Shown: positions 727 to 19,888 of the stretch, piece after piece
Layout: each line of letters starts with the position of its first letter
Position numbering within the stretch: the first letter of the stretch is position 1
Source: Candidatus Electrothrix yaqonensis
GTDB taxonomy: Bacteria; Desulfobacterota; Desulfobulbia; Desulfobulbales; Desulfobulbaceae
DNA length: 32,000 nucleotides
Direction of reading: 5' to 3'
Assembly: GCA_047651235.1 (NCBI GenBank)
Contig: CP178758.1
Span: 2,670,001 to 2,702,000, forward strand
The notes under the pieces: generated by a model
What the model was told of the DNA's origin: nothing
Seen by the model: only the letters and a program-made list of their open reading frames with translations
Databases searched by the model: none
Translations under genes and position numbers: made by a program

Positions 727-915
727 CGGGCCAAAGAATTTAATTTCTTTTTCTTTCGTACCCTATAACCATACGTTACCCATTCATGTCTTTGGCTTTT
801 ATATATTATTAATAATTGTCTAAAGTTATATGTTTTGACAAACGCACTATGCTGAGATTTTCTGCATTGTTCTCCATCATTTCAAAAAGTGTTACCGATT
901 CAGGCAACCCTGGAT

Positions 916-1400
916 TCAAGTGATAAGTGCATAACCCATAATTTTTCTGACATCTACCCCTGTCAGTTTCTCAAATAGGGTGTTTTAAATTTGAGACATT
1001 TTCTCGGCCTGCTGTTAATTCTACTTTGGCGATCATAAACATAACTAGCTTATTTTTATTAAGTATTTAAAAACCCCTGTTTTTAGCATTATTAATATTA
1101 TTAAATAGTTAATGGTATGGTCACCAAAGTAGAATTAAGCTTGTCCACAGCACTCACGACCTGCTGCACAGTGATATCAACTAATTCGATATTCTTCGGA
1201 AAATATTGCCGTAACAGACCGTTGGCATTCTCATTCTGTCCTCGTTCCCGGGAGTGGTAAGGTTTGGCGAAATAGGTCTCACATTCAATTTCCTTAGCGA
1301 TCTCCTCATGAAGAGTGAATTCCTTGCCGTTATCAAAAGTTATTGTTTTAACAGACTGTTTTACAGGAGAAAACAATGCGGCCATCGCATCTTTGACATA
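916..1400 (-). pseudogene. IS30-family transposase remnant (N-terminal ~200 aa missing, interrupted at 1019-1134, probable frameshift near 975-980)
   Basis: Tracked ORF 1101-1439 reads TFDNGKEF...YFAKPYHSRERGQNENANGLLRQYFPK...VDKLN, the IS30 DDE C-terminal half. The expected continuation SRPRKCLKFKTP is found at 1013-978, beyond a 116-bp insertion. Another frame then reads LFEKLTGVDVRKIMGYALIT* down to 916. Confidence 0.75.
1019..1134. mobile_element. MITE-like 116-bp non-coding insertion with 17-bp terminal inverted repeats and a TTAA (or TA) target duplication
   Basis: Left end is ttctactttggcgatca (1019-1035). The right end reverse-complements to ttctactttggtgacca (1118-1134), a 15/17 match. 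TTAA occurs at 1015-1018 and 1135-1138. Deleting the element plus one TTAA rejoins the IS30 frame as ...VDKLN|SRPRKC. The AT-rich interior has no ORF. Confidence 0.6.
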
Positions 1401-1509
1401 TTTTCTGTGTGCCACAACGCGCAACAGTTTCATAACCACATACCGGGCAAATGCCTCTACCTTTAGGAAAGGGCATCACCCTTTCTCCGTCTACTATGGA
1501 AAATTTCAT
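1348..1509 (-). pseudogene. N-terminal stub of a CoiA-like (zinc-ribbon plus nuclease family) protein, truncated at about 1400 by the IS30 remnant
   Basis: My own translation gives MKFSIVDGERVMPFPKGRGICPVCGYETVARCGTQKI..., which matches my memory of the CoiA-like N-terminal pattern (short beta hairpin, then CPxCG...x(K/R)CG). The expected HFAH/WHWAH motif that should follow is absent. The ORF is 53 aa and so below the track cutoff. Confidence 0.3.
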
Positions 1510-1558
1510 TTTTTTTGAGCCTTAATTTTTTGCTTCAGTAGTCAAACTTATGGGAGTA

Positions 1559-1720
1559 TTAAAAACGAATGCCAAATAATGAAATACACATAAAGAGAAG
1601 CGACCAAATACACGATCCAACTCCAATTCCACCTAATATTCCTGTTAACAATCGTCTATAATTTGTTGATGGAAGGATATGGAAAAATTGTAACGACCAA
1701 TCAAATAATATTATAGCCAT
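1559..1720 (-). CDS. possible 53-aa small membrane protein (untracked micro-ORF)
   Basis: My own translation gives MAIILFDWSLQFFHILPSTNYRRLLTGILGGIGVGSCIWSLLFMCISLFGIRF*. It has a basic YRR followed by a ~28-residue hydrophobic segment. It lies 60 nt downstream of the 204-aa gene on the same strand. No Shine-Dalgarno sequence is visible. Confidence 0.25.
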   Translation of the reverse strand: MAIILFDWSLQFFHILPSTNYRRLLTGILGGIGVGSCIWSLLFMCISLFGIRF

Positions 1721-1780
1721 AAAAAGTAGGCTGACATAAAAACTTGGAAGAAGACCGAAGAGGAATAAGAAAGGTGGAGA

Positions 1781-2395
1781 TTAAGTCACAGGGTATTGTT
1801 CATAACCCCGCAGTACATTTTCATGAAATCTACAGAAATGTATTGATAGTTTCAGTAAAAATAAATAGAAGCCAGCCTGACTCAGTGTGAATTCTTTTTT
1901 ATTTTCAGCTTTGTTATAAAAATAAGGTGCCGGTACGTTATGAAGATCATCTAATACTGCGATATACTCCGATTTTAAGCCTCCTCCTTTGGGAAGATAG
2001 AACAAAGAGGTCACTCGTTGCTGTTTAATTGTACTCATTTTCGATGAAATTTTATTTCGATCAATTCCTCGTTGAATAAGCAATTTCTCATATGAATCAA
2101 GCAAAATGATTGGTGCAAAAACAATACGCACCGGAATGTCTCTTGCATTATCTGAGCTAATATCACAACTATTACTTAGGATGATTCCCTTTATAGATTT
2201 TCGTTCAGCCGTTTGCAGGTTGATTATATCAAGATTGTTCCAGCCATCTCCTTGCAGTAAATCATTTTGGTGTTTCAAGGTGTAATAATTCATCTTGTCA
2301 GGAAAGGCATCAAGAGCTTCTGTTAACTCTTTTTTGCCTTCCTGAGTCAAATAGTATGGGATATGATCTTTAATATCATCTACTGTAATGCCCAT
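1781..2395 (-). CDS. hypothetical protein, 204 aa, no family recognised
   Basis: Long ORF in an AT-rich block with protein-like composition. Candidate motifs are LLQGDGW and ILSNSCDISSD. It is the third gene of a tightly packed minus-strand cassette. Confidence 0.7.
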   Translation of the reverse strand: MGITVDDIKDHIPYYLTQEGKKELTEALDAFPDKMNYYTLKHQNDLLQGDGWNNLDIINLQTAERKSIKGIILSNSCDISSDNARDIPVRIVFAPIILLDSYEKLLIQRGIDRNKISSKMSTIKQQRVTSLFYLPKGGGLKSEYIAVLDDLHNVPAPYFYNKAENKKEFTLSQAGFYLFLLKLSIHFCRFHENVLRGYEQYPVT

Positions 2396-2402
2396 AAATT
2401 AC

Positions 2403-2741
2403 TCAGCTCTGATATAAATCCCAAAGGTCTTCAAATAAGACGTGCTCAAACTCAGAGCCAAGAGGTTCTTGATTTGCAGATAATTTGGAAAAAAAATTTG
2501 TAATAACAGTCTCTACTTCTTCAGATGAAGAATGCTGCTCAGGCAAAGAATCTCTGGTTGATTCGTATGTGGAAGAAATTCCACTATTGATAGAATCATA
2601 ATTGCTGCTTGCTGTACAGGGTGGAATATTTAAAGAGAGATCATCAGTGACACTTGGCGACAAACAAGTGCTGGCCAATATTCCTGATATTATTAAAGTG
2701 GAAAATGTCTGCGTTCTATGATGCGTTTGATATTTATTCAT
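2403..2741 (-). CDS. hypothetical Ser/Thr-rich small protein (112 aa from Met16 of the tracked ORF)
   Basis: The ATG at 2741 overlaps the upstream stop by 8 nt (ATGAATAA). The protein has a hydrophobic N-terminal segment FSTLIISGILASTCL, a low-complexity Ser-rich middle and an acidic C-terminus EFEHVLFEDLWDLYQS. It ends 7 nt before the next gene. Confidence 0.5.
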   Translation of the reverse strand: MNKYQTHHRTQTFSTLIISGILASTCLSPSVTDDLSLNIPPCTASSNYDSINSGISSTYESTRDSLPEQHSSSEEVETVITNFFSKLSANQEPLGSEFEHVLFEDLWDLYQS

Positions 2742-3480
2742 ACTCTGGCTCCAGTTGCATGAGAGTCGTTTCAGTAAGGCAATCAAAGAATGTTTCCTTA
2801 TTTACATCATGGATATGCTCAAGCACTTCATTCAACGCCTCCTCCTCAAGTTGTTTAACCGGGATATTGTCAGTCTCTTTTATCGTGTCAATATCAATTA
2901 GCACCCCTTCAAGCATAGTCTTGTCCGGCATGGTTACTTTTGCTCCAGAGACTATCTGGACAATATTAATAAGTCCATCAACTGGAATATCCATCCGTAC
3001 TTGATAAGACTCTTTAGTTAGCTTATGGCTTCCTACTGTCAGCGACAAGTTAGCTAGATTGACTTGTTCAGTGGGGTCAGTCGCCTGAATAAGATCAATA
3101 TACTTAATTGAATAGCGTATAAATTGATCGACCAAATTACTTTTCTTTACGATGCGAATTATTTCAATAATTTTTGACTTGAACTCAATCCAGCCTCTGT
3201 AAGGCAACTTACAAGTAACAGCTATACTGTGATCACCTATCAATATACCATAATTATCTAAATTTATACGAATAAGCGGAGCATATTTCAGTTTAGGGTC
3301 ACGGTTTCGTATTACTTCAGGTATGTCAAGCTGAGGAAGCCGTTCCAGCTGTTTTTCTTCACTAAGCTCGGAAAAAAGAACTCCTGGCAATATATTTGAT
3401 AAAGGAAGGGGAGCGATAAAACGGCACTCAAATACTGCGTCTAATAACGGTTCGTTGCGAAGTCGTGTTGGAAGTTTCAT
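2734..3480 (-). CDS. TIGR04255-like uncharacterised protein (248 aa)
   Basis: The N-terminus LRNEPLLDAVFECRF...LPGVLFSEL fits my memory of the TIGR04255 family signature (PLxEAVxExRF near the N-terminus, ~250-270 aa, sporadic distribution). Assignment not searched. Confidence 0.6.
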   Translation of the reverse strand: MKLPTRLRNEPLLDAVFECRFIAPLPLSNILPGVLFSELSEEKQLERLPQLDIPEVIRNRDPKLKYAPLIRINLDNYGILIGDHSIAVTCKLPYRGWIEFKSKIIEIIRIVKKSNLVDQFIRYSIKYIDLIQATDPTEQVNLANLSLTVGSHKLTKESYQVRMDIPVDGLINIVQIVSGAKVTMPDKTMLEGVLIDIDTIKETDNIPVKQLEEEALNEVLEHIHDVNKETFFDCLTETTLMQLEPEYE

Positions 3481-3639
3481 AGTTGTTTTTTTGAAAATTT
3501 GTAATTATCTTGCCCCTTGATTCTGCAATCCTTACAGAATTTACACGCATCCACAATATTCTTCTGAGTCTTAGCATTGCCCCAATCTCTTTTGTACCAT
3601 CTCCCAAGTTTGGCTTCAAGCGTATTTTACACTTCTTGA

Positions 3640-3880
3640 ATCTTCAGTACCCGGATTGGTCTGTCTGATTTTATCTTCAAACGGGCAAAGAAGCAGTACG
3701 GCAAAAGCGTAACCAAGGAAGATATTTTCTATTATGTGTACGGCATCCTGCACAGCCCGGAATACCGCACCGCCTTTGCTTTGCCAACGACCTGAAAAAG
3801 ACGCTCCCCCGCCTGCCCCTGCTCGACAGCGCAAAAGACTTTTGGGCCTTCAGTAAAGTGGGCCGTTTTTGTACCCGCTT
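3640..3880 (+). pseudogene. C-terminal relic of a type ISP restriction-modification enzyme / N6-DNA methylase, frameshifted
   Basis: One frame reads GLSDFIFKRAKKQYGKSVTKEDIFYYVYGILHSPEYRTAFA and then stops. The family-typical continuation ANDLKKTLPRLPLLDSAKDFWAFSKVGR is in another frame starting at 3783. The shift sits at the local duplication gcctttgctttgcc. There is no upstream catalytic part. Confidence 0.6.
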
Positions 3881-3929
3881 TATGCGGTTGATGTCAACGG
3901 AAAAGAATGGACGGCAAGGAAGGAAAGGC

Positions 3930-3967
3930 AAAAAAAAACCTGCTCACCAATGAAGGCTGCGGGTTTT
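3930..3967 (-). terminator. possible intrinsic terminator downstream of tRNA-Leu
   Basis: On the minus strand an imperfect stem (cccgc...gcagg, one mismatch) is followed by a run of 9 T (3930-3938). The stem is weak. Confidence 0.3.
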
Positions 3968-4003
3968 ATAAAACGTCAAAGGACGACGTGATACTCAATA
4001 ATA

Positions 4004-4090
4004 TGGTGCCGAAGGGGAGAGTCGAACTCCCACGAGCGTACGCTCACTAGACCCTGAACCTAGCGCGTCTACCAGTTCCGCCACTTCGGC
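4004..4090 (-). tRNA. tRNA-Leu (anticodon CAG), CCA encoded
   Basis: The reverse complement folds by hand as a class II tRNA. Acceptor GCCGAAG/CTTCGGC. Anticodon stem CTAGG/TCTAG with loop TTCAGGG. Long variable arm GAGCG-TA-CGCTC. T arm GGGAG-TTCGACT-CTCCC. Discriminator A followed by CCA. Confidence 0.95.
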
Positions 4091-6879: not shown

Positions 6880-8295
6880 CTACAAATCCCCCGATGCCTG
6901 CCCGTTCATCTCTCTGTACAGTTTCAACGCCATCAGTCCGGCAATCAGTACTCCGGCGATGAGGACAGCCCAGAGCAGCCAGTGCCGCCAGGGCAGTTTT
7001 CGGACCGGCTTAAGCACGGCGGGGTCGCCGAGAATTCTCTGCGGTCCGGCCTGCGCCGTTGTGACTAGTTTTTCTGCCTGCTGCGGCTCAACAGCCCTGA
7101 GCAGGCGATCCACCTGATAACGGGCCGCCTGCAGACCGGCACGACCATACACTAGGGTGAACGGCGGTTTGCCCTGGGCCATAAACAGCAGCTGACCGGG
7201 CAGCCAGCCCAGTTCCATATTCGGGGCCTGATCACCACTGCTGATATCCCCGGTTTCTATGCGCCAGAATCGGTCCGTAGTCGGGCTGATCCGCTGCACC
7301 CCGCTGTCCAGATCAATGCCGTCAACCGTCAGGCGGTAGGCGAGCAGCGAAGCCCGACGCCGCCAGGTACTCTCTTCATCCGGTCTGGAAAAGACCGCAA
7401 CCTGGGCCAGCGAGTTCTGCTCCGGCAGCGATATTCCGAGCTGATCCACTGGAAAGAATCCTTTGGTCTCGTACTGATACCCCCGGATTCCCCTGTTTGT
7501 CATCGGTACAGGTTCGCCGGTCATAGCCAGCAGGCTGCGGGGCCGGGCCTGCTCCTCCCGGTCATAGCCCGCTCTGACCGCAGTTATTTGTACCTCGTCT
7601 TTCCCAGCAGGCCAGGAGAGTCGCAGATAGGTCTTCTGCCGGATGCCCTGCGATATTGGAATTCTTTTCCGCACCAAGGTATGACCACCGAAACGGAGCT
7701 CGGCCAGAGAGACGGAGCGGACCAGCGGCTGCCAGCTGTTCAAGTCAGTACTGCTGTCCACCCGCACTGAGGTGGAAAACTGTTCACCCTGCCCGTCCCA
7801 GGCAAGCTCCAGCCAGTCCGCAGGATGCTCCAGACCGGAGGTATCCACCAGATAGGAACTGACCGACTTGACCGACTGCACCGTATCTTCAGAACTGTTC
7901 AGGCCGATGTCGATAATCGCGCCCTGAGCATTGGTTATGATGCGCAGATCAGAGGACAATCTGCTCTTTCCCGCGCTCTGTCCGGGCAAAGGGAAAAAGG
8001 GCAGATCCTGCGCCGGTCGCTGTTTTTCCGCTTTAATCTGCGGGCGCAGGAGATGCGGCACCGGATTTTGGGCATTGAACACCCGCAGATCACCGAGATC
8101 GGCTCTGGTGCAGCCCTGATAGACCTCGGCAGGCAGGGTCAGTTCATAGATGGGACCTGTACCGTTGAACGATACATCCATGCCAAAGGCAAAATCCTCC
8201 CGCTGCAGTGATGCAGGAGCAGGATTATCTGCAGCCCGGACAGGAACAGCGCAGAAAAGGACAAAAAGCAGGAAAAGCTGCTTCATGACTCTCAT
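6880..8295 (-). CDS. DUF3999-like secreted/anchored protein
   Basis: Signal-peptide-like N-terminus MKQLFLLFVLFCAVPVRAA and a C-terminal TM anchor WLLWAVLIAGVLIAGLMAL. It overlaps the upstream DUF2339-type gene by 4 nt (8292-8295). Family name from memory of the conserved DUF2339-DUF3999 pairing, not searched. Confidence 0.65.
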   Translation of the reverse strand: MRVMKQLFLLFVLFCAVPVRAADNPAPASLQREDFAFGMDVSFNGTGPIYELTLPAEVYQGCTRADLGDLRVFNAQNPVPHLLRPQIKAEKQRPAQDLPFFPLPGQSAGKSRLSSDLRIITNAQGAIIDIGLNSSEDTVQSVKSVSSYLVDTSGLEHPADWLELAWDGQGEQFSTSVRVDSSTDLNSWQPLVRSVSLAELRFGGHTLVRKRIPISQGIRQKTYLRLSWPAGKDEVQITAVRAGYDREEQARPRSLLAMTGEPVPMTNRGIRGYQYETKGFFPVDQLGISLPEQNSLAQVAVFSRPDEESTWRRRASLLAYRLTVDGIDLDSGVQRISPTTDRFWRIETGDISSGDQAPNMELGWLPGQLLFMAQGKPPFTLVYGRAGLQAARYQVDRLLRAVEPQQAEKLVTTAQAGPQRILGDPAVLKPVRKLPWRHWLLWAVLIAGVLIAGLMALKLYREMNGQASGDL

Positions 8296-11057
8296 GATTC
8301 CTCCTCGTTATTTTCGTTTTCCTCGGCAGATGCGGGCGGCAGGGGCGCGAAATAGGCGATGATGATGAGCAGGATACCTACAGCAAGAAAGGAGACGATC
8401 CGCTCCACTGTGCCGCTGTTGGCCAGATCAACCAGAAAGAGCTTGCTGACGGTCACCCCGATCAGGCCGATGCCGACAAACCAGATAGTTCGATGCTTCA
8501 GGCGGTGCGCGGTCACCATCAGGATCAGCGAAAGCATTCCCCAGAAAATTGACAGCGCAGCCTGATACAGGCGGGAGGCAAACATGGCATCCACGTTAAA
8601 CGGGACAGCGCCGAAATGATGGACAGAGCGGGCCAGCACGGCGTTGAGCCAGAGAAAGCAGGTTACTCCTCCGGCAGCCGCAAAGGTCTGCAATGGGATA
8701 TAGGCAGTAACATACTCTCGGCGCAGGAGGAGCCAGCGGAAAAGCAGAAGCAGGACAATAAGCTGGCTCAGCTCTAGGGGATTGAGCAGTGGGAGAAAGG
8801 GCAGCGGCTCGGCATTGCCCGGACTGAGCAGGGCGCCTGCCAGCAGCCAGACCCAGAGCAGAAAGGCGATAATGCCTCCTGCCTGCTCCTGATACTGGGC
8901 CGCATACTCGGACAGCGGCCAGAAGCGGGTCAGGCGTTCGCGCTGCACGAGCTGCAGCATAAGTAGCGGTACCAGCCCCCAGACAATGAGATTCCAGGCC
9001 CCGGTTCCGCCGGTCAGATTATGCACCTGCCAGGCGGCTTCCGAGGTCAGAATTAGGACAAGCAGGAGATAACCGCCGATATGGGTAAAACATAGGGGTC
9101 TCTCCGGCAACCGCGCACGGGCCTGCGCAAGACAGAAGTGGAGCAGGGCAAACAGCACTGGCCAGATCAGCCAGCCCAGATCGGTAGAAACATGCTGGCT
9201 GCCGAAGAATCCATGCCAGCCGATCTTGTCCGCGCCCACCAAGGCTATGACTGGCAGCAACCCCAGACTCGGCCAGGCCGCAATGGGCCAGGAGATCTTT
9301 TTTGCTGTCATCAGCAGCGCAGCGCAGCTCAGCCCGATAAAGAGCAGCACAGCATAGTCGTGATAATTATAGTATGAAACAAGCTGATAGCTCAGCTCAT
9401 TAATTCCGCCGCCGAACCACCAGCCGATCCCCCAGAGAAAAAGCGGCAGATGATGGTATTGTTCAAAACGGCGCAGACTTCCGGCCTGACCGGCCTGATA
9501 CAGATACCAGGAGGAAAACAGGGCAGACAGGCTGATGATAAGGGAACCGAGACAGATCCCGTTGAACAGGATCATCCGGTCGGCAACAGGCTGACTGGAT
9601 GCCAGAAAAAAGAAACCCGCAGCAAACTGCAGCAGTACACCGACGTTTCGGGGAAGAAGGCGGTTCTGCCGTACCCCGACCCAGATGAGAGCAGCGCCTT
9701 CCATTGCCCAGGTCACGGCAGTCCACCGGCCGCTCAGGGCCAGAGGGATGGCCAGGGTGACAAAGGCGACGCTCAGGGCCAGAAACGCCTCGGTCAGGGT
9801 GCGTATTCCCTGGCGCAGCCGCTCATTGCCTCTGTTCCAGAGAAACGAGGCCAGCCCGACATAGAACAAACTGACAGCCAAGGCGCTGAGTGCTAGGCCG
9901 TACGGCATATCCTTGACCAAGGCAGCCTGGAGGGAAAAACAGATGATCGGGGTGCCGAACACCAGCGTGCCGTCCACATAACCGCGCAGCTTGGGCGGCT
10001 GGCGGAAGGCGAACAACACACCGATGGCAGTGAACATCAGAAAAAAGAGGAGAAGAAAGGGCTCAGTGGAGGCAAAATAGCGGGGCTCATAGCTGCTCAC
10101 CCCCCAGGCGCTGCCGATCCCCAGGGTGAAAACAAAGCCCAGCAGGTTCAGCTCCCTCCAGGCCTTGAACCAGGCAATGAGCAGAATACCGCTGTTGAGC
10201 AGGGCGTAATAACTGAACAGGGCCACATGACTGCCGCTGCCGGTGGAAAGCAGAACCGGGGCGAGAAACCCGCCTGTCGTACCGAACAGGGCCAGCGATT
10301 TGGCATCCTGGAGCAGGGCCAGGGCAGCAGAGGTGCAGACCAGCCCGATCATCACGGCAAAGGCAAGGGGCATGGGCAGCAGATCATACAGCTTGAATGC
10401 CGCAAAGACATCGAGAAACAGAAGGCCGATGGCACCGCCCTGCATCAGAAGAGCAAATCCGGGACGTTTCAGCCGCACCTTCCAGCCGAAAATCAGCATG
10501 CCGATGCCTGCCAGCGCCACTCCGAGCAGGCGCAGCTCAATGGACAAAGTGAGCAGCTTGCGATCAACAGCGTATTTCAGCAGAAAGGAAACTCCGAAGA
10601 AGAGCACCAGCAGACCGACCCGCAGAACCACATTGCCCTGGGTGAAGAATTTCCACACAGCGGAAAGAACGCGTTCCACCGGATCAGAGGTATTTTTCGG
10701 GGGAGATGGGGGGGCAGGTTTCGTGCCGGTACTTTCTGTTTTTGAGGAGGGAGAAGACGGAGAGGAAGGTGCCGGTCGGACCGATTCCAGGCCGTCCTGG
10801 TCCGGCCCGGTCTCAACGGTTTTGTTTTCAACCGGGGAAGACGGTTCCGGCTCGTGTTGTTCCTCCTTTTCCGGCTGAAAAATAACCGGCTTTTCTGCCG
10901 GAGCTTCTTCTTTCTGAAGCGACTTCAGCAGGTTCTCATTGTCCGTCAGCCGTTTCTCCACCTGCCTCAGCCGCTTGCACTGCTGCACAACGATACACAG
11001 GAACAGGAGGCTGCCTGCGATAATCCCAACAAGAATTAGTACAATAATTACATCCAT
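8292..11057 (-). CDS. DUF2339-like polytopic membrane protein (921 aa)
   Basis: N-terminal TM helix, a coiled coil (LRQVEKRLTDNENLLKSLQKEE), a Pro/Ser-rich linker (PAPSSPSSPSSK...PAPPSPP), then more than 20 hydrophobic segments. Contains the TTGGFLAPVLLSTG-type motif I associate with DUF2339. GGAGGAGG lies before the ATG. Confidence 0.75.
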   Translation of the reverse strand: MDVIIVLILVGIIAGSLLFLCIVVQQCKRLRQVEKRLTDNENLLKSLQKEEAPAEKPVIFQPEKEEQHEPEPSSPVENKTVETGPDQDGLESVRPAPSSPSSPSSKTESTGTKPAPPSPPKNTSDPVERVLSAVWKFFTQGNVVLRVGLLVLFFGVSFLLKYAVDRKLLTLSIELRLLGVALAGIGMLIFGWKVRLKRPGFALLMQGGAIGLLFLDVFAAFKLYDLLPMPLAFAVMIGLVCTSAALALLQDAKSLALFGTTGGFLAPVLLSTGSGSHVALFSYYALLNSGILLIAWFKAWRELNLLGFVFTLGIGSAWGVSSYEPRYFASTEPFLLLFFLMFTAIGVLFAFRQPPKLRGYVDGTLVFGTPIICFSLQAALVKDMPYGLALSALAVSLFYVGLASFLWNRGNERLRQGIRTLTEAFLALSVAFVTLAIPLALSGRWTAVTWAMEGAALIWVGVRQNRLLPRNVGVLLQFAAGFFFLASSQPVADRMILFNGICLGSLIISLSALFSSWYLYQAGQAGSLRRFEQYHHLPLFLWGIGWWFGGGINELSYQLVSYYNYHDYAVLLFIGLSCAALLMTAKKISWPIAAWPSLGLLPVIALVGADKIGWHGFFGSQHVSTDLGWLIWPVLFALLHFCLAQARARLPERPLCFTHIGGYLLLVLILTSEAAWQVHNLTGGTGAWNLIVWGLVPLLMLQLVQRERLTRFWPLSEYAAQYQEQAGGIIAFLLWVWLLAGALLSPGNAEPLPFLPLLNPLELSQLIVLLLLFRWLLLRREYVTAYIPLQTFAAAGGVTCFLWLNAVLARSVHHFGAVPFNVDAMFASRLYQAALSIFWGMLSLILMVTAHRLKHRTIWFVGIGLIGVTVSKLFLVDLANSGTVERIVSFLAVGILLIIIAYFAPLPPASAEENENNEEES

Positions 11058-11105
11058 TACATCCTCCTCCGCTCATGAGATACCGTCCCGCTGACGATAC
11101 ACATC

Positions 11106-11134
11106 ATTGTACAATTACATGTGAATATCCGCAA
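11106..11134 (-). promoter_or_regulatory. candidate sigma70 promoter for the DUF2339/DUF3999 pair
   Basis: The minus strand reads TTGCGG-N17-TACAAT, about 45 nt upstream of the ATG at 11057. Confidence 0.3.
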
Positions 11135-11173
11135 GAAACAGGATGGTTCTGGCAGAAGATCCGCCTCATCCTG
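11129..11173 (-). terminator. candidate terminator after cheB
   Basis: The minus strand reads CAGGATG-(21 nt)-CATCCTG followed by TTTCTTG. The 7-bp stem is perfect but the loop is large, with some internal pairing. Confidence 0.3.
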
Positions 11174-11185
11174 CTGCAGGGTTGT

Positions 11186-11782
11186 TTACGGAGTGATGGA
11201 ACGCTTCGCGGAGCTGCGTATTGCCGGAAGGCCTGCCAGAAATTTTCCCAGATTTTCCGGGGCAAGTACATGATCAACCTCTGTGCGGGCCAGTGCGGTC
11301 GCGGGCATTTCCGGGAATCTGGCCGTAGCCGGATCCTGCACCACGATCAGACCGCCGTGCTCCCTGATCCGCTGCAGACCGCAGGCACCGTCATGATTGG
11401 CACCAGTCAGGAGGACACCGACCAGCGCGGGGCCGTATACATCTGCCGCGCTTTCAAACAGCACGTCAATCGAGGGCCGGGAGTAATTGACCTTGTCATC
11501 GGCAGACAGGGAAAACGTTTCGTCCCGCTCGATCAGCAGGTGATAATCCGGCGGGGCAACATACACCCGTCCGGGAATAATTTTTTCCTTTTCCTCGGCT
11601 TCCTGCACATCCAGCAGCGAACGGCTGCCGTACAGACGGATCAGGGAATCCTCCTGATCTTTGCGCAGATGCTGGACAAGAATGATTGGCAGGCTGAACT
11701 GCGCCGGAAGCTGGGCCAGTATTGCTGTAAAGACCTCTATTCCGCCGGCTGAAGCCCCGACGACAACCGCTCTGTATTGCAT
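11186..11782 (-). CDS. cheB: CheB-type protein-glutamate methylesterase, catalytic domain only (no receiver)
   Basis: MQYRAVVVGASAGGIE (Ser), ILVQHL (His) and LLTGANHDGACGL (Asp) match the CheB catalytic triad context. Starting at Met33 of the tracked ORF leaves 4 nt after the cheR stop. Confidence 0.85.
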   Translation of the reverse strand: MQYRAVVVGASAGGIEVFTAILAQLPAQFSLPIILVQHLRKDQEDSLIRLYGSRSLLDVQEAEEKEKIIPGRVYVAPPDYHLLIERDETFSLSADDKVNYSRPSIDVLFESAADVYGPALVGVLLTGANHDGACGLQRIREHGGLIVVQDPATARFPEMPATALARTEVDHVLAPENLGKFLAGLPAIRSSAKRSITP

Positions 11783-16824: not shown

Positions 16825-17861
16825 CTTTTTTCTCCCGGAGAATCCTTTTTTTCTTCAGCCGGGTTCCCTGTCCGCTGAACTGTTGTCTGTTTATCTGCAA
16901 TGACGCGGTTTCTGCCGTTCTGTTTGGCCTGATACAGTGCCTTATCAGCAGCAGAAACCATGCAGCCGAAGGAATGGTGGGATTCTTTCCGGTAGGTGGT
17001 CACACCCATACTGACAGTCATTTTCGTGGAGTATACGCCGTCATCGATCAGATAGTCCGCACATATCCGGCGGATTTTTTCAGCTTTGCAGAGAGCTCCC
17101 TTCATACCGGTCTGGGGAAGCAGAATGATAAACTCCTCCCCGCCGAACCGGAAAACAAGATCAGATTCTCTGACATGGGCGAGCAGGAGAGCGGAAAATT
17201 CTTTCAGCACATAATCACCGAATTCATGGCCGAAGGTATCGTTAATTTTTTTAAAATAATCAATATCAAGCATAATAATGGAAAGTTCACTGCCGTGACG
17301 GCGGCACCGGCAGAATTCCTGCTTCAGACAAGTCACCAGATGACGGCGGTTGTACAGCCCTGTCAGGTCATCGTGGGTGGAGAGCCGTTCCAGCTGCTTA
17401 TTTTTTTCCAGAACAAGCTGTTTTGTTTTCTCAAGTTCACGGATAGTCTCCCGCAGCCTGATCTGCTGAAGATATATTTCAATAAAGAACCGTATCTTGC
17501 CTGCCAGGAATTCCGGGTTGAACGGCTTGGTGATGAAGTCCACAGCCCCGGACTCATACCCTTTAAAAATATGAAACTCATCAGAATAGATGGCGGACAG
17601 GAAGATAATCGGCAGATTGGCCGTCTGTTTTCTGTTTCGGATAAGCTGCGCCAGTTCATATCCGTCCATTTCCGGCATCTGGACATCAAGGATAGCCAGG
17701 GCAAACTCGTGCCGCAGAAGCTCCACGAGGGCATTATTGCCGCTTGTCGCCTTGATAAACTCTGCATCAATACCGCTGAGAACGCCGCTGAGTGAGGTTT
17801 CCAAGGCAACAAGATTATTCGGCTTATCATCAACGATAAGTACTTTGACCCTGTCCGTCAT
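16821..17861 (-). CDS. response regulator with GGDEF output (diguanylate cyclase, PleD/WspR-like)
   Basis: REC domain (LIVDDKP, ILDVQMPEMDG, FITKPF), a coiled linker, and a GGDEF domain with GGEEF at 17130-17144. An RESD motif lies exactly 5 residues upstream (RxxD I-site). The stop overlaps the kinase start by 4 nt. Confidence 0.9.
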   Translation of the reverse strand: MTDRVKVLIVDDKPNNLVALETSLSGVLSGIDAEFIKATSGNNALVELLRHEFALAILDVQMPEMDGYELAQLIRNRKQTANLPIIFLSAIYSDEFHIFKGYESGAVDFITKPFNPEFLAGKIRFFIEIYLQQIRLRETIRELEKTKQLVLEKNKQLERLSTHDDLTGLYNRRHLVTCLKQEFCRCRRHGSELSIIMLDIDYFKKINDTFGHEFGDYVLKEFSALLLAHVRESDLVFRFGGEEFIILLPQTGMKGALCKAEKIRRICADYLIDDGVYSTKMTVSMGVTTYRKESHHSFGCMVSAADKALYQAKQNGRNRVIADKQTTVQRTGNPAEEKKDSPGEKR

Positions 17862-17934
17862 ACAGAAAATTCAGCCGCAGGCCCGGCGTATCGGGCAGCC
17901 GGGCTCAGTAACAAATATGAAACGATAATATCCT

Positions 17935-17963
17935 ATTATATTTTATCACAGTGAAATTTTAAA
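17935..17963 (-). promoter_or_regulatory. candidate sigma70 promoter of the GGDEF-kinase-cheRB operon
   Basis: The minus strand reads TTTAAA-N17-TATAAT, about 75 nt upstream of the ATG at 17861. Confidence 0.3.
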
Positions 17964-18342
17964 GGTAATACGTTGAATAATTCCGTTGTCTATCATCCGT
18001 CTTTCCTGTCCGCCCGCATACAGATTTTCCGCTGCATTTTTCGGGACCGGAAAACAGGTGCAGCTGACGAACGCAGACTGGGCCTGCCACCCATCGCTTT
18101 TTGCTGATTAGCGATAGATATATGATTTAAAATAAAGCGTTACACAAAGATGTTCTCTTTTTACTTCCCTTGCATGTATGTGTACAGTAAGCGCATCTTG
18201 CGAAAGAAGTTTCATCCGGTCTGCGGAGTGTTCTTCCCGGACTCAAGAAAAGTCCTCTGTATAAGGAATGAAAATTTAATAACAACGGAACTTGCTGACA
18301 GGTCATTGACAATTTCATAGTTGCGTTTATTCTCATCCGGTT

Positions 18343-18534
18343 ATGAAGATAAAAACATATTCTCCTGAGATAGAAACGCGAATGCGTAATTTTTACGGCA
18401 GCCTGTCTGAAAAAGACCGCCGTCGATACGCCGCAGTTGAAGCGGAAAAGTTCGGATACGGCGGCATAACGTATATATGCGACGTGTTGCGGTGTGATTC
18501 TGACCGGGTCCGTCGCGGGATGAATGAACTGAAA
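18343..18534 (+). pseudogene. N-terminal stub (~64 aa) of an ISAzo13-family transposase
   Basis: LSEKDRRRYAAVEAEKFGYGGITYICDVLRCDSDRVRRGMNELK matches my memory of the ISAzo13 N-terminal HTH region (...RLWAAAEAxxxGxGGIxxVxxATGxSxxTIxRGxxEL). Similarity is lost after ~18534. Confidence 0.55.
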
Positions 18535-18536
18535 AT

Positions 18537-18692
18537 GACAACGGGACTGCCCGGCGTGGAACATCCCAGCATAGCACCGGGATTGGGGCAATGTACGGTC
18601 AGCTCATTACCGTCGGTGAGGAGGATGTCGGCGAGAAACCGCTTGTAGCGTCTGAGCAGGATGCCGGTCTGCCAGATCGGGGGAAGCTGCAT
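18537..18692 (-). pseudogene. sfsA: 5' stub (~52 aa) of sfsA (sugar fermentation stimulation protein A family)
   Basis: GILLRRYKRFLADILLTDGNELTVHCPNPGAMLGCSTPGSPV is collinear with the E. coli SfsA N-terminus (LIQRYKRFLADV...LHCPNTGAMTGC..PG). The rest of the ~230-aa protein is absent. Confidence 0.7.
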
Positions 18693-19005
18693 GAAACCGA
18701 AACAAGAGAGTTATTCCTTAAATAACGCAGATTGAAATCCCAAAGAGCGGCGCTGATATTGACAGCATTGTCGTCGAAATTTTTCTGGGATTGCGGAATC
18801 AATGAATTTGAGATCGTGACCGAAGCCTTCTCAGTCATACCAGAAAGAGCGGAACAGAGCAAGACGCGATTGTCCTGCGTTGAGATGATGATGGATTTTA
18901 ATGGGCAGTCCGGAGGTGAAGTGAAGGTGGTGTTGAAGAGGTGGGTTTGTAGCGGGAGAATAACCTTGGCAAATGCTAAATTGGATACCACATCATGCAT
19001 AACCA

Positions 19006-19572
19006 TCATGACTCGTTTTTTTTATTTGATATGCAAGACAATTCTAATATTGGTTGTTCAGCAGGTCTTGGCTTATCGATAACAAACGACCGGGCTCCTT
19101 TCCTCTCTTTGATCCAAGCTATGCTTAAATCGTCCCAAATGGTTTGATAAGAATCATGAAAATAATTAATTACATCTAAATTGAGTTGTTCGTCAGTCTT
19201 TCCTGCAAGATAATGATCAAGGTCATCTCGTAAATGGTAGAATCGAGCTTTTGCAAGCTCGTGCTCGATCCAAAGAGCGTGATAATTAAAGAAAGGTTCT
19301 AACGCGGTAAGAAGAGTGACAATTGCGCCAAATGCGAAAGCAATATTTTTAAAGGCTGGCTCAAACCCTTGTATCTGGAGGCCAAGTAAAATGGTGGCGA
19401 CAGCAGATAACGTCAGTCGAATGAGGATGATAACAGTTGCTTTAAATTGATTGCGAGTTCGTTTTTTCTGGGCATTATTGAGCGACCACTCAACACGCTT
19501 TATCAATAGATTAGCCTTGGTTCGGGCTTCAGACGTTTGCACTTTCTCGTCATCAGATAATGGCTTATCCAT
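19006..19572 (-). CDS. SLATT / DUF4231-like two-TM protein (188 aa), stand-alone
   Basis: The architecture is an N-terminal helix (RVEWSLNNAQKKRTRNQFK), two adjacent TM helices (ATVIILIRLTLSAVATILLGL and IAFAFGAIVTLLTALEPFF), then NYHALWIEHELAKARFYHLRDDLDHYL, which resembles the conserved post-TM helix of SLATT domains. The gene is AT-rich. Assignment from memory. Confidence 0.55.
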   Translation of the reverse strand: MDKPLSDDEKVQTSEARTKANLLIKRVEWSLNNAQKKRTRNQFKATVIILIRLTLSAVATILLGLQIQGFEPAFKNIAFAFGAIVTLLTALEPFFNYHALWIEHELAKARFYHLRDDLDHYLAGKTDEQLNLDVINYFHDSYQTIWDDLSIAWIKERKGARSFVIDKPRPAEQPILELSCISNKKNES

Positions 19573-19888
19573 GTTTTTTACGTCCTGATTATCTTTTATC
19601 CATTGATCATTTTAAAATCACACTTTTTTAAAGACAGATAGCCTACCATAAAATGGTAGTAATGGCTACCCTATGCTCACCCCTTCCCCGACGACACCAA
19701 GCCATCAAACTCTCCCTACAGGCGATTCCTGCTCCTGCTCTTTGCATTGGCGGGCTCGATTAAACGTTACGCTGCTGGCAGAAATCGGGTAGTATGCCCC
19801 ACGATAAACAGATAAAACTGAAGCCGGGATGCCGGGTGTCGGACCGGTTTCATATAAACTGCATAATTCCAATTATTCTTCATAGTAA

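Follow-up and report, generated by a model that had tools for sequence, protein, structure and literature searches.

A mobile three-gene operon headed by a TIGR04255 protein: a candidate toxin-antitoxin-like phage-exclusion module in Candidatus Electrothrix yaqonensis and in phages

Background

A 32,000-nucleotide (nt) stretch of Candidatus Electrothrix yaqonensis DNA (contig CP178758.1, positions 2,670,001 to 2,702,000 of the forward strand; hereafter "the window") carries three closely spaced minus-strand genes, here named g1, g2 and g3, within an AT-rich islet. The question raised by this locus is whether these genes form a working unit and, if so, what that unit would do. An original prediction, made from the nucleotide letters and their open reading frames (ORFs), had proposed a candidate novel defence or toxin-type module composed of the three genes and a downstream micro-ORF.

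The triad is a self-contained, horizontally mobile three-gene operon. The favoured reading, to which about an even chance is given, is that it constitutes a tripartite toxin-antitoxin-like phage-exclusion (abortive-infection) module. The proposal of a defence or toxin-type module gained support from the co-occurrence of the genes, the predicted fold of the g3 product and the phage accessory loci in which the triad is carried, but not from the chromosomal copies, whose association with defence genes is weak.

A conserved and coupled operon

The three ORFs were confirmed on the minus strand at the predicted positions (Table 1). The 8-nt overlap between the g1 stop and the g2 start (ATGAATAA) and the 7-nt spacing between g2 and g3 were likewise read directly from the sequence, and the whole triad measures approximately 1.8 kb. 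A protein in NCBI from a Ca. Electrothrix sp. YB6 metagenome-assembled genome matches the g3 product at 100% identity.

When one genome was scanned per GTDB species, 44 loci were recovered. In every genome locus with enough upstream DNA (39/39), a TIGR04255 gene, a gene of approximately 110 amino acids (aa) and a g3 homologue were collinear, and g1, g2 and g3 were found together in approximately 75 bacterial, prophage and plasmid loci overall. Failure to recur elsewhere had been named beforehand as evidence against a module; instead, the order was the same at every locus with enough sequence. Three loci (L035, L040 and L045) lacked a g2 match by tblastn, and divergent copies were recognised there by eye. 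Hosts in the genome scan belonged to the Desulfobacterota, Alpha-, Beta- and Gammaproteobacteria, Bacteroidota, Balneolaceae and Muiribacteriota, and included Aggregatibacter, Pseudomonas, Caballeronia and Legionellales.

The junctions between the genes were conserved as well. The 8-nt overlap of g1 and g2 was present in 27 of the 30 loci listed, the remainder having an overlap of 11 nt, or a gap where g1 was damaged or the start ambiguous, and the g2-g3 gap ranged from 1 to 17 nt. A GGAG element lies 7 nt before the g2 ATG in the window and was seen in 22 of 37 loci; it is embedded in the g1 codons for LEPEYE, which are conserved. The absence of Shine-Dalgarno sequences reported in the original prediction therefore holds for g1 and g3 but fails for g2.

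Pairwise distance matrices of the g1, g2 and g3 proteins were correlated (r = 0.76-0.85). Relative to the four closest loci, dN/dS values were 0.06-0.10 for g3, 0.12-0.15 for g1 and 0.28-0.35 for g2, with dS near saturation. All three genes are under purifying selection, and they are inherited as a unit, a real and coupled operon.

Where copies of the triad have decayed, g3 is the gene most often broken. It is frameshifted in L037 (6001-6589) and L038 (1055-1643), and in L041 (5298-7206) it is split by a 1.3-kb insertion that carries a 399-aa ORF on the opposite strand. At one further locus (L018, 4847-6594), the C-terminus of g1 and the N-terminus of g2 have been deleted, the C-terminus of g2 has been kept and g3 is intact; this single case fits the idea that the g2 C-terminus, not g1, keeps g3 harmless. 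These natural variants lend small support to a toxin-antitoxin model.

A predicted MazF-type fold in the g3 protein

The original prediction had assigned g3 to no family, and this was borne out, with nothing found in Pfam, NCBIfam or PADLOC. A set of 5.8 billion proteins contained 658 homologues, the best 120 of which were almost all approximately 200 aa in length and about 50-76% identical. A profile search of cluster representatives placed 896 clusters (50% identity) in the family, and no fused architectures were seen among the top 150.

The AlphaFold2 model of g3 had a predicted local distance difference test score (pLDDT) of 84 and a predicted template-modelling score (pTM) of 0.78. When this model was compared to the PDB using Foldseek, ranks 1-48 and 50 of the top 50 matches were MazF/Kid/MoxT/YdcE toxins (best E 8e-4, probability 0.85-1.0, target-normalised template-modelling (TM) score mostly 0.62-0.73), and CptN was matched weakly (E 0.1). 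The order of secondary-structure elements in the model fits the MazF topology. In addition to this core, the model has 45 extra residues at the N-terminus, an insert of two helices and a C-terminal tail, modelled with low confidence, that bears the HFCRFHE motif. The g3 protein is thus predicted from its model to have a MazF-type fold, and it founds a large unannotated family of ~200-aa proteins with this predicted fold. No housekeeping or phage-structural homology, either of which would have spoken against a defence module, emerged for the triad; the predicted fold of g3 is instead that of MazF/Kid toxins.

The QGDGW and SNSCD motifs that had been pointed out in g3 are present and invariant across the family (Q48, G49, D50 and W52; N75, C77 and D78). 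The suggestion of a Cys/Asp active site stood in so far as these residues are invariant, but what it amounts to is a set of invariant residues. The family alignment also contains invariant R85, Q126 and H186, and near-invariant residues that include K66, H152, C188, R189, H191 and E192. A Cys/His metal site is possible, judging from these positions.

The acidic middle protein

The g2 protein is acidic (pI 4.4 in the window; orthologue median 4.55) and gave no match in Pfam, NCBIfam or PADLOC. An alignment of 38 orthologues revealed four regions: a conserved polar start (MN.Y...Q.S.TFS), a hydrophobic uncharged segment (approximately residues 10-32 in the window; median 24 residues across orthologues), a variable, low-complexity linker rich in Ser, Thr and Asn, and a well-conserved acidic C-terminal helix region (FE....FY..L...QEPLG.EFE.VL..NLWDLYES). 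The C-terminus is more conserved than the hydrophobic segment, with mean distances of 0.51 and 0.81, respectively. As in type II toxin-antitoxin systems, the small genes are adjacent and coupled, and the acidic partner lies upstream of the toxin-like gene. An acidic g2 preceding g3, with a variable linker between conserved ends, has the arrangement typical of a type II antitoxin tail.

The hydrophobic segment (window ~2650-2710, minus strand) keeps a Gly flanked by small residues (ISGILAST, VAGVFATH), in the pattern small-G-x-x-A/S. As a sequence pattern, this motif resembles a transmembrane helix-packing motif. It also counts in favour of a different assignment of roles, in which g2 would be a membrane effector that causes damage or depolarisation on activation, and g1 and g3 would act as sensor and regulator. 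Effectors with one or two transmembrane segments have precedents in P2/P4 hotspot systems (Rousset 2022), and the motif-bearing segment is itself conserved. The pattern of constraint nevertheless argues the other way: the best-conserved part of g2 is its acidic soluble C-terminus and not the hydrophobic segment, g2 is the least constrained gene of the triad, and it is g3 that is most conserved, carries enzyme-like invariant residues and is inactivated in decayed loci. An effector role for g2 is accordingly judged improbable.

The g1 protein and the TIGR04255 family

The resemblance of g1 to TIGR04255 was upheld by NCBIfam, where the curated cut-off is 30 bits and g1 scored 113.7 (E 1.3e-32, model positions 1-248 of 252); the orthologue in Pseudomonas phage Dobby scored 83.5 bits. 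The family is named "sporadically distributed" and comes without a described function, and a literature search returned no paper mentioning it. The AlphaFold2 model of g1 (pLDDT 95.2, pTM 0.90) consists of an internal duplication of a beta-alpha-beta4-alpha unit, a TBP-like fold. Foldseek searches of the PDB with this model gave weak matches only, to TBP and AdoMetDC/prozyme (TM 0.3-0.45), and a viral structure library held nothing informative. Residues kept across distant TIGR04255 members include R58, Y94, W97, S124, Y127, G-x-h-h-D196-x-D198, H224 and K228.

A second setting for the family was found in Campylobacterota phages. Sulfurimonas phage SNW-1 encodes a TIGR04255 protein with 28% identity to g1 (hhalign probability 99.6%), followed by genes of approximately 110 aa and 130 aa, and this arrangement is kept in five related contigs (Table 1). 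A search with the SNW-1 protein found five homologues and three metagenome loci. In the longer contigs, the SNW-1-type triad lies between a cII-like gene and a helix-turn-helix repressor gene, within the phage immunity region. Its partner proteins had no detectable relation to g2 or g3. This second triad suggests a modular architecture, in which the TIGR04255 subunit appears to stay constant while its partners are exchanged, as is common among immune modules.

On a wider and more tentative reading, which we regard as possible but short of even, TIGR04255 would be the common subunit of unrecognised prophage- and islet-borne immune modules with swappable partners. In these, g1 would sense a phage cue or recruit RNA, g2 would be a two-ended tether that is possibly membrane-anchored, and g3 would be the effector; the triad would be the most widespread form, and g3 would represent a branch of approximately 900 MazF-fold clusters whose Cys/His (possibly zinc) active site is unlike that of characterised MazF.

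Members of the SNW-1-type triad measure ~230-240 aa, 108-134 aa and 129-136 aa, in gene order. The third protein carries R[ND][FI][VI]SR[ST]YY..LHC[RK]D and R[VI][QK]ADY motifs. Its identification by eye as a HEPN protein was not confirmed, as Pfam and NCBIfam gave no match and the only hit was a retron HEPN chain at E 0.49.

Phage, plasmid and chromosomal context

The g3 profile recovered 34 IMG/VR viral contigs, each with the full triad (34/34), and the triad was also present in two sequenced Pseudomonas phages, Dobby and VW-6S. In the lambdoid phage VW-6S, the triad lies directly downstream of the CI repressor gene, shares its orientation and is followed at some distance by the integrase gene; this is the place that rexAB occupies in lambda. 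Among 18 representative phage loci, neighbouring PHROGs were repressors (5 and 4 members), Q-like antiterminators (5), HNH endonucleases (5) and lysis genes. In Dobby, a P2-like (phiCTX-like) phage that does not carry ctx (PMC7454045), the triad is located at 1114-2786 and is convergent with the portal gene. Anti-phage systems of P2-like coliphages are concentrated in a hotspot, the cos-proximal gpA/gpQ region (Rousset et al., PMC9122126), and the Dobby position beside the portal gene is this P2-type hotspot. The triad occupies phage accessory (moron) loci typical of exclusion genes.

On an unannotated 14,960-bp plasmid of Phocaeicola massiliensis (OY726032.1), homologues of g1 and g3 (33% and 37% identity) were found at 9655-11313. 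They lie approximately 340 nt apart on one strand, a triad-like spacing; g2 was not searched for there. No fourth conserved neighbour was identified, given that 109 flanking ORFs of 38 loci shared only four integrases and assorted housekeeping genes. The closest Desulfobulbaceae relative has, just upstream of its triad, a gene for a TPR-CHAT protein of 1527 aa, a member of the caspase-like protease family (L003, 60-4643, plus strand).

Carriage by prophages and by a small plasmid would also be expected of a purely selfish addiction module, whose toxin-antitoxin mechanics would stabilise the prophage, plasmid or islet that carries it and would play no part in excluding phages. That explanation is fitted equally by the toxin-like fold, by the coupling and by an acidic partner encoded upstream, and known defence genes are not consistently near the chromosomal copies. 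Addiction does not account as well for the P2-type hotspot and the positions behind cI, which are typical of exclusion genes, or for the many copies located between housekeeping genes with nothing obvious to stabilise. Nor would it need the larger and strongly conserved third component, g1. Addiction as the sole role is therefore considered unlikely, and phage exclusion is kept as the favoured function.

Proposed mode of action

In the phage-exclusion model, toxicity, ribonuclease activity, binding partners, trigger and defence phenotype are properties that we infer for the triad. The g3 protein would be the effector, and most likely an endoribonuclease because of its predicted MazF/Kid-fold core; its polar set K66, N75-C77-D78, R85, H152 and H186-x-C188-R-x-H191-E192 may include a Cys/His metal site. 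The g2 protein, produced in constant proportion to g1 because of the conserved 8-nt overlap, would serve as an acidic, partly disordered, two-ended adaptor. Its conserved C-terminal helix would hold or mask g3 in an inactive state, and its conserved hydrophobic N-terminal segment would either bind to g1 or tether the complex to the membrane. The g1 protein would be the sensor of a phage cue or an RNA-binding subunit. Infection by another phage, or loss of g2, would free g3, which would then cut RNA and halt growth before the phage cycle is completed.

Two known systems make such a design plausible. The anti-phage toxin RnlA carries two TBP-like domains for substrate (RNA) binding ahead of its RNase domain (PMC8266594), and MazF-like GajC is the effector of type II Gabija, a validated anti-phage system (PMC13069673). 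Also counted in favour was the placement of the window cassette, which is flanked by the remnants of a Type ISP restriction enzyme and of an IS30 transposase and lies next to a tRNA gene.

Several observations weigh against the phage-exclusion model, and the first group concerns the chemistry of g3. No Pfam PemK match was obtained for g3 at E <= 1, and an hhalign comparison with an alignment of four MazF sequences had an E of 0.054 and a probability of 1%, in the right register for the C-terminal half only. A profile search of PDB sequences with g3 found no MazF, and no sequence-based link to solved structures was obtained for either g1 or g3. The invariant g3 residues do not reproduce the MazF Arg/Thr pair, nor can canonical catalytic residues be recognised, so that g3 may use a different chemistry. 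When g3 was placed by eye in secondary-structure register with MazF, the presumed catalytic Thr position had no polar counterpart, the end of the g3 strand taken as beta3 was hydrophobic (FAPII), and near-invariant Lys K66 fell at the start of what would be beta2, presumably near the catalytic Arg position. With no polar counterpart of the Thr and only K66 near the Arg position, RNase activity of g3 is therefore not assured.

A second group concerns g2 and the neighbourhood of the triad. Unlike MazE, g2 has no DNA-binding domain detectable in Pfam or NCBIfam. Its hydrophobic segment has a slightly positive N-terminal flank and could, from sequence, be a signal anchor that places the conserved C-terminus outside the cell, which would rule out a cytoplasmic antitoxin role. 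Partial correlations associate each half of g2 more closely with g1 than with g3, a weak lean. Approximately 10 of the 109 flanking ORFs matched PADLOC models, several of them generic (cyclase and TPR models), and the defence genes were sporadic, with single matches to MzaA, a type IIG restriction enzyme, pAgo, an Aga-type SIR2 protein, a type I restriction enzyme and DinG. Of ten large neighbours, eight gave no match. The defence-island association of the chromosomal copies is thus weak.

Some of these points would be accommodated if the triad were no toxin system at all but a non-toxic accessory complex, for instance an RNA-processing or regulatory factor or a membrane-associated complex of lysogenic conversion, with the g3 fold recruited for binding. 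Canonical MazF catalytic residues that are not recognisable in g3 (by the presumed by-eye register, with no significant alignment), a g2 protein that looks membrane-anchored or exported, an acidic g1 (pI ~5.4) and the lack of PADLOC matches would all be expected of such a complex. The distribution of the triad would not: it is sporadic and patchy across phyla, with about 50-76% identity among the best 120 g3 homologues, and the triad is carried at phage moron sites. Pseudogenisation strikes g3 preferentially, and the dense invariant polar, Cys and His residues of that protein suggest catalysis. A non-toxic complex is consequently rated as unlikely, slightly more so than a pure addiction module.

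If the phage-exclusion model is true, TIGR04255 would gain a first lead on its function. New defence candidates have become common; the triad would add to the phage-exclusion systems a compact three-gene candidate that is phylogenetically widespread. As cultivable Pseudomonas phages (Dobby and VW-6S) carry the triad, the hypothesis is directly testable.

Comparison with known systems

No PADLOC-DB v2.0.0 model matched g1, g2, g3 or the micro-ORF at E <= 1, and no paper on this three-gene architecture was found in the literature searched. By analogy, the triad would work most like a type II or tripartite toxin-antitoxin/abortive-infection system, and comparisons were made with the systems closest to it in these respects.

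MazEF and Kid-Kis (PemIK) share with the triad the predicted g3 fold, a small acidic protein encoded directly upstream and coupled, and a mobile, sporadic distribution. They differ in all three components. The g3 protein is approximately 200 aa long, has terminal extensions and a two-helix insert, lacks a PemK Pfam match and has other invariant residues; g2 has a hydrophobic N-terminal segment instead of an AbrB- or ribbon-helix-helix-type DNA-binding domain; and an obligatory third gene (TIGR04255) heads the triad operon.

Toxin-antitoxin-chaperone (TAC) systems likewise consist of three coupled genes and have a middle or adaptor protein with a segment recognised by the third component. MazF-type toxins occur in some TAC systems. 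The third component of TAC is, however, a SecB-like chaperone, whereas g1 is TBP-like and gave no SecB signal in Pfam, NCBIfam or Foldseek searches, and the gene order differs.

The type III and abortive-infection systems ToxIN, AbiQ and CptIN resemble the triad, as predicted here, in having Kid/MazF-related endoribonuclease toxins that are longer than MazF and in acting through abortive infection. Their antitoxin is a tandem-repeat RNA encoded ahead of the toxin gene, whereas the element upstream of g3 is a conserved protein-coding gene that evolves under purifying selection. Tandem Repeats Finder detected no ToxI-type repeat array upstream of g3; the only two short repeats were both inside the g3 coding sequence.

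RnlAB and LsoAB are phage-exclusion modules borne on mobile DNA that combine a ribonuclease toxin with TBP-like substrate-binding domains, to which the predicted folds of g3 and g1 would correspond. In RnlA, a single polypeptide contains both TBP-like domains and the HEPN RNase, whereas the triad has a separate g1 and a predicted MazF-fold effector, and no RnlB-like antitoxin is present in the triad. The 50 best structural matches of g1 did not include RnlA. Type II Gabija (GajB plus GajC) also uses a MazF-like domain, as predicted in g3, as its effector; GajC, however, consists of a split MazF-like domain and has a UvrD-type helicase as its partner, and the triad has neither a helicase nor a PADLOC Gabija match. 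The validated system Rst_3HP (Rousset 2022, E. coli E1114) comprises three hypothetical proteins, without known domains, from a comparable phage hotspot. Its proteins measure 337, 362 and 227 aa, compared to 248, 112 and 204 aa in the triad, and the two were set apart by protein size alone.

Genomic surroundings of the cassette

Table 1. Features of the g1-g2-g3 locus in the window, and locations of the second TIGR04255-led triad in other contigs
Feature	Positions	Strand	Description	Source
g1	2734..3480	-	248 aa, TIGR04255 family; predicted TBP-like double-repeat alpha/beta fold	ORF
g2	2403..2741	-	112 aa, acidic; ATG at 2741, start backed by conserved 8-nt overlap
g3	1781..2395	-	204 aa; predicted MazF/Kid-like core at approximately residues 45-190, 45-aa N-terminal extension, C-terminal HFCRFHE motif
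g1 stop/g2 start overlap ATGAATAA	2734..2741	-	8 nt, putative translational coupling	Sequence
GGAG, Shine-Dalgarno-like element of g2	2749..2752	-	Inside last codons of g1
DUF2085 membrane-protein gene, C-terminal remnant	1559..1780	-	Context, outside cassette; marks 3' junction
Type ISP restriction-modification enzyme C-terminal domain, frameshifted remnant	3661..3869	+	Context, upstream of g1
IS30-family transposase C-terminal remnant	1101..1439	-	Context
tRNA-Leu(CAG)	4004..4090	-	Edge of low-GC islet	ARAGORN
Second TIGR04255-led triad	L083 3974-5424; L084 4001-5477; L086 4001-5446; L089 201-1648; L090 268-1809

The cassette is located in a low-GC islet that adjoins tRNA-Leu(CAG). The GC profile was 0.34-0.41 from ~800 to 4004, compared to 0.53-0.60 in the flanks, and the cassette itself had a GC of 0.34-0.38; the higher AT content noted in the original prediction was thereby corroborated. 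The decay of the neighbouring genes was also recovered. The Type ISP remnant, which sits between g1 and tRNA-Leu, matched Pfam PF18135 (E 9.1e-26) as a frame-corrected peptide and consists of a C-terminal specificity domain in two pieces (3661-3777 and 3786-3869, plus strand) with one frameshift between them. The IS30 remnant matched NCBIfam NF033563 (E 1.1e-31) over profile positions 170-263 of 267 only. No att-like direct repeat of the tRNA-Leu end was found in the window, and no clean promoter or terminator was found for the cassette.

The 53-aa micro-ORF (1720-1559), which had been proposed as a fourth gene of the cassette, was rejected. It contains only the C-terminal third of DUF2085 and had no counterpart at any other locus. 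The DUF2085 match (Pfam E 6.3e-7) covers profile positions 55-88 of 90, and the same frame is open directly behind the g3 stop codon. Since the match is C-terminal only, the frame is open from the g3 stop and the ORF is absent elsewhere, the micro-ORF is read as the remnant of a gene truncated at the cassette junction, and the 3' junction of the cassette therefore lies within a few nt of that stop. From the sequence, an insertion or rearrangement appears to have truncated a membrane-protein (DUF2085) gene at this junction.

Three further features of the window were recorded. A Cys-rich ORF of 53 aa (1509-1348, minus strand) with a CxxC...CxxC pattern overlaps the upstream end of the IS30 remnant and has no family assignment. 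A second low-GC stretch (~17000-19600, GC 0.43-0.47) contains few long ORFs, and the AT skew is strongly positive (0.2-0.38) at 8000-10500, over a DUF2339 gene.

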